Source of the DNA: a virus
Lineage: Duplodnaviria > Heunggongvirae > Uroviricota > Caudoviricetes
IMG/VR virus record: IMGVR_UViG_2711768010_000010
Length of the DNA stretch: 6,495 nt
Reading direction: 5' to 3' (one strand)
Both the position numbers and the translations under genes were made by a program. The notes below the pieces were generated by a model. That model ran no database searches, was not told the origin of the DNA, and was given only the letters and a program-made list of their open reading frames with translations. Of this stretch, positions 108 to 6,495 are shown in pieces. Each line of letters begins with the position of its first letter. Position 1 is the first letter of the stretch.

Positions 108-306
108 TCCATCACCGAAAAAAATTGGCTTTTACACCATTGGCGATAAAAGCATTTACCTGTATGACCTACGCCGCATGGATGAAATCATGGAGGCTCT
201 TGATAATCGTTCGTCGATGGATTGGTGTGTTGCTGTTCATGATATGAATGCAGGGTTTGATGAAAAGATTTTGTTCCCCTCATCAGTTGAAAGCACTGCG
301 GGTTAA
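76..306 (+). CDS. Hypothetical protein, 76 aa; first 11 codons lie inside IR-L
   Basis: ORF with ATG at 76 and TAA at 304..306. Weak RBS. No family recognised by eye. Stop is followed directly by a strong AAGGAG RBS for the next gene, which supports it being part of an operon. Confidence 0.45.
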   Translation: MVVSAIASTPHPSPKKIGFYTIGDKSIYLYDLRRMDEIMEALDNRSSMDWCVAVHDMNAGFDEKILFPSSVESTAG

Positions 307-316
307 GGAGTAACAC

Positions 317-484
317 ATGACCACTATTACCAAAGAACGTATTGAATTGTTCATTAAAAACCCGCTTGAAAACGGGCTTACCCGTGGTGAACAAATGGAA
401 CTGGCACGGATTGCGCTGGCATCGCTGGAAGCAGAGCCGGTTGTGTTCTGGTTTGAAAAATATCAAGAAGGGGCTACGGCATGA
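317..484 (+). CDS. Small hypothetical protein, 55 aa (not in the supplied ORF track, below its length cutoff)
   Basis: AAGGAG at 305..310, 6 nt before ATG 317. Stop TGA 482..484 overlaps the next ATG 481 (ATGA coupling). Product [12 protein letters not shown]...[28 protein letters not shown] resembles the N-terminal half of the downstream 114-aa protein. Confidence 0.6.
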
Positions 485-825
485 CGACTTTTACCAGAGA
501 GCAGTTAATAGCTCACGCAGAGGAGACTATTGAAGCACAGAGACTGTGCATACCGGGCACAATCGACCATGACATCATCCGCACATATAAGATGGATATT
601 GCTGTTCTGGAAATCGCACTGGTATCGCTGGCAGCAGAGCCAGCCGGTAAATTGCATGAATACAAACCAGTGGGATATCAGCGTCTGGTCGATGAGTTAA
701 CCATGCTGGTAAAGCAGTTAACCTGGCAACTGAGGAAAGCGAAGCCAGACTGCAAATTACCGGATAAGGCGATGAGTTATCTGGAGCGGAACGGACTGAT
801 AAGCGTGGAGGATATTTTACGATGA
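481..825 (+). CDS. Hypothetical prophage protein, 114 aa; paralog of the preceding 55-aa ORF
   Basis: ATG 481 overlaps the upstream stop. Shared motifs with the upstream ORF: MTT(I/F)T(K/R)E and (M)xxAxxxIALxSLxAEP. Stop TGA 823..825 overlaps the next ATG 822. Confidence 0.65.
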
Positions 826-905
826 CCTGGCCTGAAGCATTAACAACGGTAGGAATTGCGATGGCGGTGGCGCTGGTGGTGTATTCGATTTGCCGCTGGG
901 GATAA
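822..905 (+). CDS. Possible 27-aa single-pass hydrophobic peptide ([27 protein letters not shown])
   Basis: ATG 822 in ATGA overlap with the upstream stop. GGAGGA at 807..812. Hydrophobic core [15 protein letters not shown]. Stop TAA 903..905. Very short, so tentative. Confidence 0.3.
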
Positions 906-1004
906 AAACGGTTTGCGGGAAAAGGAGAGTTAAGTAGAATTGCAGCGGGTGCTTGAGGCTATCTGTCTCAGGCATGAACACCAAAAGGCAGATAGAGAAA
1001 AGCC

Positions 1005-1075
1005 CCAGTTAACATTACGCGTCCGGCAAGACGCTTAACATTAATCTGAGGCTCAATCTATGAACGGCAAATCTA
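1005..1075 (-). ncRNA. Predicted Sok-like antisense RNA (coordinates approximate)
   Basis: Inference only: in hok/sok loci a roughly 65-nt antisense RNA overlaps the mok translation-initiation region. A possible minus-strand promoter (TTGCCT-17-TAACCT) lies opposite 1078..1106. Exact ends cannot be fixed from sequence. Confidence 0.25.
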
Positions 1076-1272
1076 GGTTAGCCTCTTACGTGCCGAAAGG
1101 CAAGGAGAAGCAGGCTATGAAGCAGCAAAAGGCGATGTTAATCGCCCTGATCGTCATCTGTTTAACCGTCATAGTGACGGCACTGGTAACGAGGAAAGAC
1201 CTCTGCGAGGTACGAATTCGAACCGGCCAGACGGAGGTCGCTGTCTTCACAGCTTACGAACCTGAGGAGTAA
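1060..1272 (+). CDS. mok-type in-frame leader ORF containing hok (70 aa)
   Basis: ORF MNGKSRLASYVPKGKEKQA + Hok. GAGG at 1048..1051, 8 nt before ATG 1060. From memory, chromosomal mok reading frames extend hok in frame in the same way. Confidence 0.5.
   Translation: MNGKSRLASYVPKGKEKQAMKQQKAMLIALIVICLTVIVTALVTRKDLCEVRIRTGQTEVAVFTAYEPEE
1117..1272 (+). CDS. hok: Hok/Gef-family type I toxin, 51 aa (HokD/RelF-like)
   Basis: Product MKQQKAMLIALIVICLTVIVTALVTRKDLCEVRIRTGQTEVAVFTAYEPEE carries the Hok family signature (TM helix, LTRKxLCE, GxxEVAxFxAYE). AGGAG at 1103..1107, 9 nt before ATG 1117. Confidence 0.85.
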   Translation: MKQQKAMLIALIVICLTVIVTALVTRKDLCEVRIRTGQTEVAVFTAYEPEE

Positions 1273-1340
1273 GAGACCAGGCGGGGGAGAAATCCCTCGC
1301 CACCTCTGATGGGGCAGGCATCCTCAATGCACCCACACTT

Positions 1341-1369
1341 AACCCGCTTCGGCGGGTTTTTGTTTTTAT
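1341..1369 (+). terminator. Rho-independent terminator at the 3' end of the hok transcript
   Basis: AACCCGC-TTCG-GCGGGTT hairpin (UUCG tetraloop) followed by TTTTTGTTTTT. Confidence 0.7.
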
Positions 1370-1380
1370 TTTCAACGCGT

Positions 1381-1410
1381 TTGAAGTTTTAGATGGTGCC
1401 GGAATAGAAT
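1381..1410 (+). promoter_or_regulatory. Candidate sigma70 promoter for the downstream operon
   Basis: TTGAAG (1381..1386), 18-nt spacer, TAGAAT (1405..1410), just after the hok terminator and about 80 nt before the next ORF. Confidence 0.3.
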
Positions 1411-1492
1411 CAAAAATACTTAAGTAGCGCGCAGGGAGAAGAGGGATGGACCCCGAACAGGGGAGTGCTATTTATCTGGAAGGATTCTGTTG

Positions 1493-1774
1493 ATGAAAAT
1501 CGAAGAATTACGTGAAATTTTTAGTGAAGATGGCCTCTATACTGTGCGCGTTGAGAATGGCGCTATTGTCAGCCACTGCCTTCCAGACTACACAATTCTG
1601 ATAATTCAGCCGTCTTTGCCAGCAGGCACGGGCGGCGCTCTCACGCATTTAAATCTGATTGGTACCAGCATCCCCCATGCACTGAAGAACAGGCCGAATG
1701 GCTCATTCAGTGTTACCGCAGGCGCGGATGCGAGGTTAAAAAAGCCCTTAGCCTCGACTACCGTCACTGGATAA
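1493..1774 (+). CDS. Hypothetical protein, 93 aa; sits where rem lies in Qin-type prophages
   Basis: ATG 1493 (the track start at 1490 is TTG immediately before it). GGAAGGA about 10 nt upstream. Stop TAA 1772..1774. The rem assignment is positional only, from the recalled order hokD-rem-ydfU. Confidence 0.5.
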   Translation: MKIEELREIFSEDGLYTVRVENGAIVSHCLPDYTILIIQPSLPAGTGGALTHLNLIGTSIPHALKNRPNGSFSVTAGADARLKKPLASTTVTG

Positions 1775-1849
1775 TCTCCGTCAGGCTCCCTTACTCCGAA
1801 CGGCCAACGCGTCCGTCCCGCACATTCCAGCAACGGATCTGGAGGTAAT

Positions 1850-2908
1850 GTGCGGGTATTACTTCGACCTGTTCTGGTACCGGAACTCGGTCTGGTTATC
1901 GTTAAGCCAGGCCGTGAATCAATGTCAGCATTCCATAACGGCAGAATACTGGTGGAGCCGGAACCAAAAAGCATGCGTAATCTGCCGTCCGGGGTCGTTC
2001 CTGCCGCTCGCCAGCCGCTGGTGGAAGACAAAACATTGCTGCCGTTTTTCAGTAACGCACGGGTGATTCGTGCTGCTGGTGGTGCTGGTGCATTGTCTGA
2101 CTGGCTGTTGCGCCATATTAAATCCTGCCAGTGGCCACACGGCGATTATCATCACAGCGAAACCGTCATTCACCGTTATGGTACCGGCGCAATGGTGTTG
2201 TGCTGGCACTGCGACAACCAGCTGCGTGACCAGACATCCGAATCACTCGAGCAACTTGCTCATCAAAACCTGTCAGCATGGATGATTGACGTCATCGGTC
2301 ACGCAATAAGCGGTACGCAGGAGCGTGAATTATCTCTGGCTGAATTATCCTGGTGGGCGGTCCGCAATCAGGTGGCGGACGCGCTACCGGAAGCGGTATT
2401 ACGTCGTTCGCTGGGGTTGCGTGCGGAAAAAATTCGCTCTGTGTACAGTGAAAGCGACATCATACCGGGAGAGCAGACAGCCACCAGCATACTGAAGCAG
2501 CGCACAAAAAATATTGCGTTACTGCCTCACGTCCACCAGCAACAGAACCCACCACAGGAAAAGACGGTGGTCAGCATTGCCGTTGATCCGGAGTCACCGG
2601 CTCAGTATCTCCAGCGCCAGAAATCACAACGGGAAGAGATGCCTGTATACACGCGCTGGGTAAAAACGCAGAAATGCATGACGTGTGGCAATCAGGCAGA
2701 TGATCCGCATCACATCATTGGTCATGGACTGGGAGGGATGGGAACAAAGGCTGATGATTTGTTTGTTATTCCGTTATGCCGTAAATGCCGTAACGAACTA
2801 CATGCCGGAGTAAAAGATTTTGAAGAGAAACACGGCAGTCAGCTGTTGTTGCTGATTCGTTTTTTAATGCACGCGAGAAATTCGGGTGTTCTGAAGTGGA
2901 AAGCATAA
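1850..2908 (+). CDS. DUF968 / YdfU-like prophage protein, 352 aa, with Cys/His-rich C-terminal motif
   Basis: Long ORF. GTG start at 1850 with GGAGG at 1841..1845 (alternative in-frame ATG at 1922). C-terminus has CMTC...PHHIIGHG...CRKCRNELH, an HNH-like pattern. Similarity to E. coli YdfU is from memory. Confidence 0.7.
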   Translation: MRVLLRPVLVPELGLVIVKPGRESMSAFHNGRILVEPEPKSMRNLPSGVVPAARQPLVEDKTLLPFFSNARVIRAAGGAGALSDWLLRHIKSCQWPHGDYHHSETVIHRYGTGAMVLCWHCDNQLRDQTSESLEQLAHQNLSAWMIDVIGHAISGTQERELSLAELSWWAVRNQVADALPEAVLRRSLGLRAEKIRSVYSESDIIPGEQTATSILKQRTKNIALLPHVHQQQNPPQEKTVVSIAVDPESPAQYLQRQKSQREEMPVYTRWVKTQKCMTCGNQADDPHHIIGHGLGGMGTKADDLFVIPLCRKCRNELHAGVKDFEEKHGSQLLLLIRFLMHARNSGVLKWKA

Positions 2909-3289
2909 ATGACCGAGCGCATAGAATTTGTTTTACCTTACCCGCCGACGGTGAACACTTACTGGCGTCGTCGTGGCAGCACATATTTTGTATCAAAAGC
3001 CGGGGAGCGTTATCGCCGGGCAGTGGCGCTTATTGTTCGCCAGCAGCGGCTGAAATTAAGCCTGTCCGGAAGGTTGGCAATAAAAATTATTGCAGAACCA
3101 CCGGATAAGCGCCGCCGTGACCTGGACAATATTCTGAAAGCGCCGCTGGATGCGCTGACGCATGCGGGGTTGCTAATGGACGATGAGCAGTTTGATGAAA
3201 TCAATATCGTTCGTGCTCAGCCAGTATCTGGTGGACGTCTGGGGGTGAAGATTTATCCCATAATGCTTGAAGGGCAGGTCAAAAAATGA
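2909..3289 (+). CDS. rusA: RusA-family Holliday junction resolvase, 126 aa
   Basis: Conserved RusA pattern: LPYPPTVNTYWRRRG near the N-terminus and PDKRRRDLDNILKAPLDALTHAG (E. coli RusA has [23 protein letters not shown]). ATG 2909 directly follows the upstream TAA. Stop overlaps the Q start (ATGA at 3286). Confidence 0.9.
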   Translation: MTERIEFVLPYPPTVNTYWRRRGSTYFVSKAGERYRRAVALIVRQQRLKLSLSGRLAIKIIAEPPDKRRRDLDNILKAPLDALTHAGLLMDDEQFDEINIVRAQPVSGGRLGVKIYPIMLEGQVKK

Positions 3290-4107
3290 AACTGGAAGAT
3301 TTACCGAAATACTACTCCCCAAAATCCCCCGGCCTGACTGATGCATCGGCCTCAACGTCGAAAGATGCGCTGAGTATCACTGATGTGATGGCCGCGCAGG
3401 GCATGACACAGAATCGGGCTGAGATGGGGGTTTCTGCGTTCCTTGGGAAAATGGGCATTAGTATGAATGACAGAGAGCGGGCAACAGAATTGCTGACAGA
3501 ATATGCACTCAGTCGGTGTGATCGCGTGGCGGCGTTAAGAAAACTCCCGGCAGAAATAAAACCGGCAGTGATGCGTATTATGGCTTCGTATGCGTTTGAA
3601 GATTATGCCCGTAGCGCGGCGAGCAAAAAACAGTGCCCCTGCTGTCACGGAAAAAAATTTATTGAAAGCGAGGTTTTTACAAACAAGATCCAGTATCCGG
3701 ATGGTAAGCCGCCGGTATGGGCAAAGTGTACGAAAGGTGTGTATCCGTCTTACTGGGAAGAATGGAAAAAAGTCAGGGAGGTGGTAAAAGTTGCCTGTCC
3801 GGAGTGTGGCGGAAAGGGTGAGGTTTCCACCGCCTGTAAGGATTGCCGTGGGCGTGGTGTCGCCATTCATCGTGAAGAGTCGGTAAAACGTGGTATGCCT
3901 GTTATCAGAGACTGCCAGCGTTGTGGTGGTCGTGGCTATGAAAGACTACCATCAACGGAGGCATTTAATGCTATATGCGAGGTGACAAACCAGATAACAC
4001 GCGCGTCATGGGAAAAAACAGTTAAGAAATTTTATGATGCGCTGGTGACCCGGTTTGATATTGAAGAAGCATGGGCTGAGCGGCAGTTAAAAAAGGTAAC
4101 TAGGTAA
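3286..4107 (+). CDS. Late-gene antiterminator Q (long, Cys-rich QuuQ-type), 273 aa
   Basis: Sits immediately upstream of a lambda-pR'-like promoter, pause element and tR'. Carries repeated CxxCxGxG zinc-finger motifs (CPECGGKG, CKDCRGRG, CQRCGGRG) plus CPCCHGKK. Family assignment not database-checked. Confidence 0.7.
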   Translation: MKLEDLPKYYSPKSPGLTDASASTSKDALSITDVMAAQGMTQNRAEMGVSAFLGKMGISMNDRERATELLTEYALSRCDRVAALRKLPAEIKPAVMRIMASYAFEDYARSAASKKQCPCCHGKKFIESEVFTNKIQYPDGKPPVWAKCTKGVYPSYWEEWKKVREVVKVACPECGGKGEVSTACKDCRGRGVAIHREESVKRGMPVIRDCQRCGGRGYERLPSTEAFNAICEVTNQITRASWEKTVKKFYDALVTRFDIEEAWAERQLKKVTR

Positions 4108-4111
4108 CAAG

Positions 4112-4140
4112 GTTGATTTTTCCGGAATCTGTGGTAAATT
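4112..4140 (+). promoter_or_regulatory. Late promoter pR'-like with extended -10, followed by sigma-dependent pause element
   Basis: TTGATT (4113..4118) and TGgTAAATT (4132..4140). AACGATGGG sits 6 nt after the -10 (4147..4155), the same spacing as lambda pR' (TAAATT-6nt-AACGATGGG). Confidence 0.7.
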
Positions 4141-4187
4141 CGTTATAACGATGGGCGTTTTATGCCTGACGTTAGAAGAGTTTCTAC

Positions 4188-4211
4188 AACCCGCCGCCGA
4201 GCGGGTTTTTT
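4188..4211 (+). terminator. tR'-like rho-independent terminator
   Basis: AACCCGC-CGCCGA-GCGGGTT hairpin followed by TTTTTT, about 65 nt after the predicted pR' start. Confidence 0.7.
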
Positions 4212-4331
4212 ATGACTGAAATCGCGTCAGTACAGTAAACGCGCTGGTGGCGGTGAATACCTGTCTTTCAGCTTGCTGGCTTTTTCGACAAGAGTTATTG
4301 GTGTGTCACGTTAACCGGAAAAGGAAAAGAC

Positions 4332-4529
4332 ATGCTAAAACAGCAGGATATGACAGAAACCGCCAGAGTGGTGTTTAATGAATTAAGCGTTACCGAACCG
4401 GCGACAGTCGGGGAGATAGCGCAGAATACTTACCTTTCACGCGAACGCTGCCAGTTAATACTGACCCAGCTGGTTATGGCGGGTCTGGCAGACTATCAGT
4501 TCGGTTGTTACAGACGCCTTCCGCAGTGA
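4332..4529 (+). CDS. Small winged-helix/HTH-like protein, 65 aa
   Basis: AAGGA 6 nt before ATG 4332. HTH-like segment TVGEIAQNTYLSRERCQLILTQLVMAGL. Its 3' end is embedded in a terminator hairpin. Confidence 0.5.
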   Translation: MLKQQDMTETARVVFNELSVTEPATVGEIAQNTYLSRERCQLILTQLVMAGLADYQFGCYRRLPQ

Positions 4530-4539
4530 AGGCTTTTTT
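4516..4539 (+). terminator. Rho-independent terminator after the small wHTH ORF
   Basis: GCCTTC-CGCAGT-GAAGGC hairpin (stop codon TGA 4527..4529 lies in the loop/stem) followed by TTTTTT. Confidence 0.65.
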
Positions 4540-4542
4540 ATT

Positions 4543-4553
4543 TGTGGTAAATG
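4543..4553 (+). promoter_or_regulatory. Candidate extended -10 promoter element upstream of the methyltransferase
   Basis: TGTGGTAAAT at 4543..4552 is identical to the pR' extended -10 core at 4130..4139. No clear -35. Confidence 0.3.
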
Positions 4554-4556
4554 GGC

Positions 4557-4587
4557 GGCTGGTGGGTGTTAGGGGCACCCACCAGCC
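4557..4587 (+). promoter_or_regulatory. Perfect 12-bp palindrome (GGCTGGTGGGTG-7nt-CACCCACCAGCC): operator or RNA hairpin
   Basis: Arms 4557..4568 and 4576..4587 are exact reverse complements. No T-tract follows, so not a canonical intrinsic terminator. Lies between the candidate promoter and the methyltransferase start. Confidence 0.5.
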
Positions 4588-4679
4588 ATCTGCTCATGCG
4601 TTGGGTTCACAAGCAAACCTCAGGCCCACTGCTTTGCGCAAAAGCAGAATGAGCCTATCAGAGACAGGCTTAATGATCC

Positions 4680-5738
4680 ATGCTTAATACTGTAAAAATA
4701 TCCAGTTGTGAGTTAATCAACGCCGACTGCCTGGAATTTATCCGGTCGTTACCCGAAAATTCTGTTGACCTGATAGTCACGGACCCGCCGTACTTTAAAG
4801 TGAAGCCTGAGGGCTGGGATAACCAGTGGAAGGGCGACGATGATTACCTGAAGTGGCTGGACCAGTGTCTGGCGCAGTTCTGGCGGGTGCTGAAACCTGC
4901 CGGAAGTCTTTACCTGTTCTGTGGTCATCGCCTGGCATCTGATATCGAAATCATGATGCGTGAACGCTTCAGTGTGCTGAACCATATTATCTGGGCGAAG
5001 CCGTCCGGACGCTGGAACGGATGCAACAAGGAAAGCCTGCGGGCGTATTTCCCCGCCACAGAGCGCATTCTGTTCGCGGAACATTATCAGGGGCCGTATC
5101 GTCCGAAAGATGCCGGGTATGCGGCGAAGGGCAGTGCACTGAAACAGCATGTGATGGCCCCGCTGATTTCTTACTTTCGTGATGCGCGAGCTGCCCTGGG
5201 GATAACGGCAAAACAGATTGCAGATGCCACAGGAAAGAAAAACATGGTGTCGCACTGGTTCAGTGCCGGTCAGTGGCAGTTGCCGAATGAAAGCGATTAT
5301 CTGAAATTACAGGCGCTGTTTGCCCGGGTGGCAGAAGAGAAGCATCGGCGTGGTGAACTGGAAAAGCTCCACCACCAGCTGGTGGATACGTATACCTCAC
5401 TGAACCGGCAGTATGCGGAGCTGCTGAGTGAATATAAACATCTGCGGCGGTATTTTGGCGTGACGGTGCAGGTGCCGTATACCGATGTGTGGACGCATAA
5501 ACCGGTGCAGTTCTATCCCGGGAAACATCCGTGCGAAAAACCGGCAGAAATGCTGCAGCAGATAATCAGCGCTAGCAGTCGTCCGGGTGACCTGATTGCA
5601 GATTTTTTCATGGGGTTGGGTTCGACAGTGAAAGCGGCACTGGCGCTCGGGCGTCGTGCAATTGGCGTTGAGCTGGAGACTGAACGTTTTGAGCAGACGG
5701 TTCGGGAAGTACAGGATTTAGTCAGCCAGAACGGATGA
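4680..5738 (+). CDS. Orphan DNA methyltransferase, amino-MTase (N6-adenine or N4-cytosine), beta-class motif order, 352 aa
   Basis: Motif IV DPPY near the N-terminus (LIVTDPPYF) and motif I FxGxGS near the C-terminus (DFFMGLGST), separated by a roughly 200-aa insert. No restriction endonuclease candidate in the window. Confidence 0.85.
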   Translation: MLNTVKISSCELINADCLEFIRSLPENSVDLIVTDPPYFKVKPEGWDNQWKGDDDYLKWLDQCLAQFWRVLKPAGSLYLFCGHRLASDIEIMMRERFSVLNHIIWAKPSGRWNGCNKESLRAYFPATERILFAEHYQGPYRPKDAGYAAKGSALKQHVMAPLISYFRDARAALGITAKQIADATGKKNMVSHWFSAGQWQLPNESDYLKLQALFARVAEEKHRRGELEKLHHQLVDTYTSLNRQYAELLSEYKHLRRYFGVTVQVPYTDVWTHKPVQFYPGKHPCEKPAEMLQQIISASSRPGDLIADFFMGLGSTVKAALALGRRAIGVELETERFEQTVREVQDLVSQNG

Positions 5739-5740
5739 TA

Positions 5741-5769
5741 TTGAAGAATTAATTACGCGTCGTTATTAT
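5741..5769 (+). promoter_or_regulatory. Sigma70 promoter for the tRNA cassette
   Basis: TTGAAG (5741..5746), 17-nt spacer, TATTAT (5764..5769), then a GC-rich discriminator (GCGGCTCC) before the tRNA 5' end at 5779. Confidence 0.6.
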
Positions 5770-5778
5770 GCGGCTCCC

Positions 5779-5854
5779 GGCCCTTTAGCTCAGTGGTGAG
5801 AGCGAGCGACTCATAATCGCCAGGTCGCTGGTTCAAATCCCCGATGGCGGTCCA
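5779..5854 (+). tRNA. tRNA-Ile2(CAU)-like (ileX/ileZ-like); 3' end does not fold canonically, possibly defective
   Basis: Acceptor 5' strand GGCCCTT, D-arm GCTC-AGTGGTGA-GAGC and anticodon loop CTCATAA (anticodon CAT) match recalled E. coli ileX almost base for base. After the T-loop (TTCAAAT) the sequence CCCCGATGGCGGTCCA pairs with neither the T-stem 5' strand GCTGG nor the acceptor strand. Confidence 0.5.
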
Positions 5855-5867
5855 TTATCTGCATCAT

Positions 5868-5944
5868 GCGTTGTTAGCTCAGCCGGACAGAGCAATTGCC
5901 TTCTAAGCAATCGGTCACTGGTTCGAATCCAGTACAACGCGCCA
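5868..5944 (+). tRNA. tRNA-Arg(UCU), phage-type (argO-like)
   Basis: Full cloverleaf folded by hand: acceptor GCGTTGT/ACAACGC, D-stem GCTC/GAGC, anticodon stem ATTGC/GCAAT with loop CTTCTAA (anticodon TCT), T-arm ACTGG-TTCGAAT-CCAGT, discriminator G, encoded CCA. Differs from the recalled chromosomal argU sequence. Confidence 0.9.
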
Positions 5945-5958
5945 CACTTATTTTCCCT

Positions 5959-5984
5959 GGCTCGCTTTTGCGGGCCTTTTTTTT
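5959..5984 (+). terminator. Rho-independent terminator after the tRNA cassette
   Basis: GGCTCGC-TTTT-GCGGGCC hairpin (one G.U pair) followed by 8 T residues. Confidence 0.75.
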
Positions 5985-6181
5985 AAATGTCTCACAATTC
6001 AGACGGTTGACAGTTGTCTGTTTTGCGGGGAGTTTGTTAAAAGAAACTGGCATGGTGAATCCCCCTGTGCGGAGGGGCAATCAGCGAGTAGGTATATGGG
6101 ATAATCGCGGATTCAGGTGCTGGTACTGAATTCACCGGGAGGCACCCGGCATCATGCAATGGCACATAGCGCCACTCTCCA

Positions 6182-6204
6182 GCCCTCTCCGGAGGGGCTT
6201 TTCT
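6182..6204 (+). terminator. Terminator-like hairpin with U-rich tail in the non-coding region
   Basis: GCCCT-CTCCGGA-GGGGC followed by TTTTCT. Short stem, so weak evidence. CGGAGGGGC also occurs at 6070..6078. Confidence 0.3.
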
Positions 6205-6388
6205 GTGCCGGATACATCACAGTTTCTGGAACCTTAGGTACTACAGTATCAGTCAGGGTGCTATATTTTCAGATGTGATGAAAGCCTGTCAGCAGGCAGG
6301 GCGTATCGGAAATGACCCAGTAGAGAAAACGTTGACTCAGATACCGGTGCTGAGTTACCGGGAAACCGGCATCACATGACCGCTATCC

Positions 6389-6495
6389 TGAGGTGTACTG
6401 GCAATAGCGGACACTACCATTTGTTCTTTTTTTAAGCAGCCATCTGATGATATTTTTCCCTGAAGGCTGCCGGGGAGATATTCCCCAGACGAGAG
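6389..6495. repeat. Right copy of the perfect 107-bp terminal inverted repeat (IR-R)
   Basis: Exact reverse complement of 1..107. Carries an inverted copy of the ORF 76..306 start; on the minus strand this gives only a 21-codon remnant (6355..6420). Confidence 0.95.

Follow-up and report, generated by a model that had tools for sequence, protein, structure and literature searches.

A very probable ileZ::argN hybrid tRNA pseudogene formed by short-repeat deletion in a prophage tRNA array

Why does a gene that starts as an ordinary phage tRNA-Ile2(CAU) end in sequence with which it cannot close its stems, directly upstream of an intact tRNA-Arg gene? The question is raised by positions 5779-5854, whose sequence is GGCCCTTTAGCTCAGTGGTGAGAGCGAGCGACTCATAATCGCCAGGTCGCTGGTTCAAATCCCCGATGGCGGTCCA, in a 6,495-bp stretch of tailed-phage DNA (IMG/VR record IMGVR_UViG_2711768010_000010), the whole of which is called the window below. 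Comparison with intact relatives gave a very probable answer: the locus is an ileZ::argN hybrid tRNA pseudogene that came from a short-repeat deletion in a three-gene array. The hybrid is almost certainly non-functional.

Anatomy and folding of the hybrid

The tRNA region of the window contains the following features:

5741-5769, plus strand: promoter-like site TTGAAG-17-TATTAT (consensus scan, 9 of 12 matches)
5779-5837, plus strand: 5' part of the hybrid, derived from ileZ and covering tRNA positions 1-59 (100% identity with intact ileZ in the relatives L007, L004, L001 and others)
5830-5840, plus strand: surviving copy of the 11-bp T-loop direct repeat, GGTTCAAATCC (from an intact relative and the BLAST pieces)
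5841-5854, plus strand: argN-derived 3' end of the hybrid (in intact arrays, argN, tRNA-Arg(UCG), ends in the identical sequence)
5855-5867, plus strand: argN-argO spacer, 13 nt, unchanged (alignments)
5868-5944, plus strand: intact argO, tRNA-Arg(UCU), anticodon at 5902-5904, encoded CCA (ARAGORN, Rfam)
5959-5984, plus strand: intrinsic-terminator-like hairpin GGCTCGC-TTTT-GCGGGCC followed by eight T (terminator scan; conserved in all aligned relatives)

From ileZ come the acceptor 5' strand, the D arm, the anticodon arm, the variable loop, the 5' strand of the T stem and the greater part of the T loop; argN contributes what remains of the 3' strand of the T stem, then ATGGCGG as 3' strand of the acceptor stem, the discriminator T and the encoded CCA. 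An earlier note on this DNA had assigned the first 60 nt to an ileX-type tRNA. The class stood, as an ileZ-type tRNA-Ile2(CAU), while the extent had to be trimmed: nt 60-62 (TCC, 5838-5840) are common to both parent genes, leaving nt 1-59 as the ileZ-specific portion. Assignment to tRNA-Ile2 was based on the CAU anticodon (CAT in DNA, 5812-5814) in an Ile2-type body and on the identity of nt 1-59 to genes annotated as ileZ or tRNA-Ile (AP012534.1; PGAP); the label Met(cat) which ARAGORN gives to intact ileZ is derived from the anticodon only.

With the ileZ cloverleaf taken as layout for counting pairs, the D arm had all four pairs and the anticodon arm four of five around a 7-nt loop, the latter identical to that of intact ileZ. 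The other two helices were broken, as the earlier note had maintained: two of the five pairs of a canonical T stem were formed in register and three of the seven of a canonical acceptor stem, whose positions 1-3 were occupied by G-G, G-G and C-C. The stems fail to pair because their acceptor and T-stem strands derive from two unrelated tRNAs. The T-loop box GGTTCAAATCC and the terminal 3' CCA were both kept. The minimum free energy of the hybrid was no better than that of shuffled sequence (z = -0.9), in contrast to intact ileZ (z = -4.0).

The tRNA-finding programs gave a divided result. ARAGORN, run over the whole 6,495-bp window, returned a single tRNA, tRNA-Arg(UCU) at 5868-5944, and called none at 5779-5854. 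The Rfam tRNA model RF00005 matched the hybrid at 5782-5847 with 33.7 bits (E = 3e-4), a drop of 39 bits from the 72.5 bits of intact ileZ; the match was local, confined to model positions 4-67 and including several non-standard pairs, and the alternative T stem proposed by Rfam can form only with a bulged U and a C-C mismatch.

The partial Rfam match, being above the gathering score of the model (29), speaks for a hybrid that works as a non-canonical tRNA, for instance one matured through this alternative T stem with the bulged U, or for a stable RNA resembling tRNA, which might serve as decoy or regulator through the intact D and anticodon arms. The intact D arm, CAU anticodon arm, T-loop box and 3' CCA and the position behind a conserved promoter-like site point in the same direction. 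Such a function is nevertheless highly improbable in view of the three mismatched first acceptor pairs, the two-pair T stem, a fold no more stable than shuffled sequence and the missing ARAGORN call. Moreover, the allele was conserved nowhere in the collections searched, so that nothing indicates selection, and an analogous hybrid in enterohaemorrhagic E. coli (EHEC), described below, has a mutated U33, as in a decaying gene.

The parental tRNA operon

Blastn of positions 5700-5990 against phage records matched hundreds of lambdoid and Stx phages, always as two pieces, which covered about 366-375 bp of the phage record per 291 bp of query and lay over annotated tRNA-Ile/Met, tRNA-Arg and tRNA-Arg genes. 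The matched genes are annotated as ileZ, argN and argO in AP012534.1 (Stx2a_F765), and ARAGORN found three tRNAs on the intact phage array, with the anticodons CAT, TCG and TCT.

The ileZ-argN-argO operon of Stx2a_F765, Nil3, PhiR49_2, S. sonnei 53G and E. coli prophages occupies the same position as the locus in the window, downstream of Q and a DNA methyltransferase gene. It has the same promoter-like site and terminator, and the flanks are conserved; identity extends over the 5' 59-62 nt of ileZ, the 3' 14-17 nt of argN and argO. In contrast to the operon, however, the window lacks 84 bp, which leaves only the hybrid and tRNA-Arg(UCU) in place of three genes, with ileZ and argN inactivated. 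The locus represents the ileZ-argN-argO operon family in damaged form, with fewer than the three genes typical of it.

The earlier note had suspected that the array of this kind had lost argN through a deletion, and this was borne out by the alignments to Stx2a_F765, Nil3, PhiR49_2 and S. sonnei-type relatives, all showing an 84-bp deletion next to an intact argO. Its description of argO was equally accurate. The gene begins after a 13-nt gap (5855-5867), scores 70.1 bits against RF00005 over the full length without non-standard pairs, the same as in the intact relative L007, and is identical to argO of intact relatives. A strong promoter shared by both genes, also claimed there, was found in part: a conserved promoter-like site is present upstream, the -10 hexamer being invariant and the -35 being either TTGAAG or TTGCAG in PhiR49_2, Stx2a_F765 and Nil3, and a G+C-rich stretch lies between the -10 and the first tRNA base, but the qualification 'strong' was not borne out.

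Two further suggestions of the earlier note can be dismissed on the same alignments, i.e. that the 5' part of ileZ had been fused to unrelated sequence and that the 3' end had served as a target for integration of a mobile element. It is general knowledge that tRNA 3' ends are common integration sites, and insertion sequences (IS) do flank the window. Nevertheless, the 3' part proved to be the authentic argN 3' end (its last 14-17 nt), 5841-5854 and the downstream sequence showing no difference from the end of argN, the spacer and argO in intact arrays. Neither inserted foreign DNA nor an att-type duplication was found at the locus, the flanks are collinear with intact arrays, and the junction is remote from any IS, the nearest ends of which lie at 107 and 6389. 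Hence, an unrelated or integrated 3' end is scarcely credible.

Origin of the deletion

Apart from the loss of exactly 84 bp, the window corresponds to the standard lambdoid ileZ-argN-argO array. In the alignments, GGTTCAAA of the ileZ T loop is the last sequence before the gap, and TCCCCGATGGCGGTCCA at the argN 3' end the first one behind it. Against the intact arrays of S. sonnei-type relatives it was the one clean 84-bp gap in a tRNA region otherwise without differences, and against E. coli FDAARGOS_1059 (NZ_CP066032.1) both sides of the exact gap were identical to the window.

Every tRNA gene has a T-loop box, and in the intact array (L007) those of ileZ (GGTTCAAATCC) and argN (GGTTCAAGTCC) form a direct repeat with 10 of 11 positions identical, 84 bp apart. 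The two BLAST pieces overlapped at 5830-5840, i.e. over this repeat, with a sole mismatch at 5837. The crossover lies within TCC at 5838-5840: when 84 bp were removed in silico from L007, an S. sonnei-type relative, any breakpoint within the shared TCC (repeat offsets 8-11) rebuilt the window exactly over a 300-bp test segment. The ancestral repeats flank the lost segment, a single copy survives, and the junction contains no filler DNA.

Slipped misalignment between short direct repeats is a classical bacterial mutational mechanism, whose signature is the exact loss of one repeat-to-repeat unit with one copy kept and short identity. The locus resembles such deletions in its imperfect 11-bp repeat 84 bp apart, the single retained copy, the exact loss and the missing filler. 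It differs from a simple internal slippage deletion in that the repeat is the universal tRNA T-loop box, the outcome being an in-register hybrid of two tRNA genes.

The ancestor would have been a prophage operon of ileZ (tRNA-Ile2, CAU), argN (tRNA-Arg, UCG) and argO (tRNA-Arg, UCU), in which misalignment of the ileZ and argN T-loop boxes would have removed one 84-bp unit and kept one copy of the repeat. Judged from the junction anatomy alone, the most likely route is replication slippage, that is, a RecA-independent deletion between short repeats.

The same product might have come from unequal exchange between two copies of the array, carried either by two lambdoid prophages or by sister chromosomes. 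Partner copies are common, up to 13 places matching the array being present in E. coli genomes, and the junction anatomy fits exchange as well as slippage. However, the identity at the junction amounts to only 7 + 3 bp, far under the requirement of RecA-dependent recombination according to established minimal homology lengths, and a single relative haplotype is identical to the window on both sides, without any sign of a second parent. Exchange is therefore unlikely, and replication slippage is retained as the preferred route.

Hybrid tRNA genes as such are familiar, an example being those of the E. coli tyrT tandem duplicate, which arise when tandem tRNA genes recombine unequally. The likeness to the window lies in the recombination of tandem tRNA genes in register with the loss of one unit. 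The partners in tyrT are near-identical isoacceptors giving a working tRNA, whereas the stems of the partners in the window are unrelated and the product cannot fold. Mechanistically, the ileZ::argN hybrid is not new: it can be classed with known tRNA pseudogenes that arise through short-repeat deletion or, equivalently, with hybrids of tandem tRNA genes. It illustrates, in a natural setting, how tRNA arrays contract when the T-loop box serves as a short direct repeat.

Relatives, prophage context and rarity of the junction

An exact-protein look-up with the methyltransferase encoded at 4680-5738 gave 10 chromosomal places among the matches listed, all with a common gene order: DUF968 protein, RusA, 273-aa antiterminator, 65-aa ORF and methylase. 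One of the ten, HE616528.1, is S. sonnei 53G (PMC5447701). The window was at least 99.95% identical to these relatives across 1680-6389/6495, and the deletion was the only difference in the tRNA region: ARAGORN called three tRNAs in each of the ten near-identical relatives, and none of the ten had the hybrid junction.

Outside the tRNA region, position 4144, intergenic and located after the antiterminator gene, was T in the window and C in all nine S. sonnei-type relatives checked; three relatives each had one further SNP of their own. The private SNP suggests that the window comes from a distinct lineage and not from any of the assemblies compared.

Megablast and blastn searches of 5,426 complete E. 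coli genomes did not detect the junction; in a sample of the array matches there, every row covering both of its sides was split into two pieces. The same programs did not detect it in the INPHARED phages either, and a 34-aa ORF running across the junction had no exact protein match on record. Two IUPAC junction patterns gave no matches in GTDB species representatives, JGI metagenomes or, beyond the window itself, IMG/VR; in the latter the intact ileZ pattern, used as positive control, gave at least 120 hits and the hybrid pattern matched the window once. The collections searched by DNA contain almost no Shigella genomes, and absence from them is weak evidence as regards the frequency within S. 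sonnei. On these searches the junction is probably a rare or private allele. If the allele is inherited within a Shigella sonnei clade, its 24-nt junction GCTGGTTCAAATCCCCGATGGCGG would make a clean lineage marker.

An allele seen once might also be an artefact of assembly, sequencing or cloning. Such a reading is encouraged by the failure to find the junction in any of the collections searched or in the 10 nearest relatives, and short-repeat deletions can indeed arise in vitro by polymerase template switching. Still, an artefact is quite improbable: the 11-bp repeat is shorter than assembler k-mers, which makes repeat collapse unlikely, the separate private SNP at 4144 suggests a genuinely distinct lineage, an analogous ileZ::argO deletion is real and inherited in 162 complete genomes, and the silence of collections nearly devoid of Shigella carries little weight.

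The fragment harboring the locus is a 6.3-kb piece of prophage (108-6388) bracketed by inverted IS copies in an S. sonnei-type chromosome. The window ends, 1-107 and 6389-6495, are perfect inverted copies of the end of an IS3-family element. The left copy ends in the C-terminus of an OrfB-like transposase, the relatives having an OrfA of 100 aa and an OrfB of 272 aa, and three relatives (L008, L009 and L013) were without the right-hand IS.

In such an IS-bounded prophage remnant the selection for phage tRNAs is presumably relaxed, and decay of accessory genes would be expected there. As a private loss-of-function allele in a decaying IS-flanked remnant, the hybrid probably has little biological weight.

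Two other RNA loci were recognized in the fragment. A full-length Rfam STnc100 match (6021-6210, 123.6 bits) starts about 75 nt past the tRNA terminator and has its own terminator hairpin at the end; it is followed by a weak second copy (6249-6437, 21.8 bits), which is interrupted by the IS at 6389. A type I toxin-antitoxin module of the hok/sok type is located at 947-1122 and 1060-1272, where Rfam sok (112.4 bits) overlaps a 70-aa mok/hok-like ORF and the closest E. coli relative has an annotated hokD.

Predicted consequences for the transcript

The operon promoter would still drive a transcript, of which roughly the first 90 nt would be a non-tRNA leader. The hybrid RNA in this leader would be devoid of the acceptor/T-arm helix required by RNase P, CCA-end processing, TilS/IleRS and EF-Tu. 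Both ileZ and argN are thus inferred to be lost as functional genes, because a hybrid without this helix cannot be a substrate for RNase P or aminoacylation; in particular, its recognition by TilS or IleRS is predicted to be unlikely. RNase P would cut the leader at the 5' end of argO, after which the leader would be degraded.

The predicted pair probabilities of the argO acceptor stem were 0.84-0.92 in the shortened transcript, compared to 0.92-1.0 in the intact one. According to this model, the locus most likely still supplies tRNA-Arg(UCU).

Interference of the hybrid with the folding of argO was considered separately and was not supported, the argO acceptor helix still being predicted in the shortened transcript at the values given above.

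It is very unlikely that the hybrid RNA accumulates as a stable, functional tRNA-like RNA. If it did, it might titrate TilS or other enzymes binding to the anticodon arm, or yield fragments resembling tRNA halves.

Other hybrids and plasticity of ileZ-headed arrays

A second hybrid of the same array was found with an ileZ::argO junction probe in EHEC genomes, for instance E. coli O157:H7 PV15-279 (NZ_AP018488.1, about 1667230-1667305; positions 1461-1536 of L016). It lacks 174 bp, with the crossover in CTGGTTC of the T arm, and its exact 54-nt junction was present in 162 of the 5,426 complete E. coli genomes. ARAGORN called no tRNA at this hybrid, Rfam matched it partially with 37.3 bits, and U33, which is universally conserved in tRNAs, is changed to G.

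This EHEC hybrid and the one in the window belong to the same array, with the methylase upstream and STnc100 downstream, and both resulted from a deletion from T arm to T arm that put the 5' part of ileZ on a foreign 3' end. The EHEC deletion (174 bp, crossover in CTGGTTC) is widespread, its U33 is changed and it leaves no functional tRNA, whereas the deletion in the window (84 bp, crossover in TCC) keeps argO and its junction was seen only there. The two deletions are independent events. The T-loop box could be a recurrent deletion hotspot driving contraction and mosaicism of phage tRNA arrays, with two independent events found so far. A probe for the remaining combination, an argN::argO hybrid, gave no match in the E. 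coli genomes.

The EHEC hybrid also demonstrates how such genes pass through annotation. RefSeq (PGAP) labels it tRNA-Met in the 162 complete E. coli genomes, probably a mistake of a systematic nature. When neighbouring tRNA genes are fused in register, the product retains enough of the tRNA signal to be taken for a genuine tRNA during annotation. With its Rfam score above the gathering threshold, the hybrid in the window would accordingly also be called a tRNA by some pipelines. Because PGAP gives this label to the analogous hybrid, a tRNA call by a gene caller at 5779-5854 would not by itself show function. As such hybrids receive tRNA labels, phage-borne rare-codon tRNAs can be overcounted in STEC and Shigella. 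A literature search on ileZ/argN/argO and on hybrid or chimeric tRNA genes found no paper describing either of the two hybrids or this array.

Variation was also observed in the middle (argN) slot, which in many arrays has argN-like acceptor and T-arm ends around a different centre of about 45 nt. Examples are positions 216-315 of L017 (E. coli O157 AR-0428) and 223-303 of L018 (E. coli STEC383, upstream of a stx2e-type stxA2). PGAP leaves such slots unannotated or calls them 'tRNA-OTHER' (81 nt), and neither ARAGORN nor Rfam (E <= 0.1) detected a tRNA in them; they may represent a decayed gene or an odd tRNA-like RNA.

Finally, ileZ heads several other arrays in IMG/VR contigs: ileZ-Lys-Thr-Gly (L023, 7193-7502), ileZ-Lys (L024, 4006-4160) and ileZ-Lys-Arg(UCU) (L032, 1836-2076). 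The variety of these ileZ-headed arrays indicates a modular shuffling of phage tRNA arrays.
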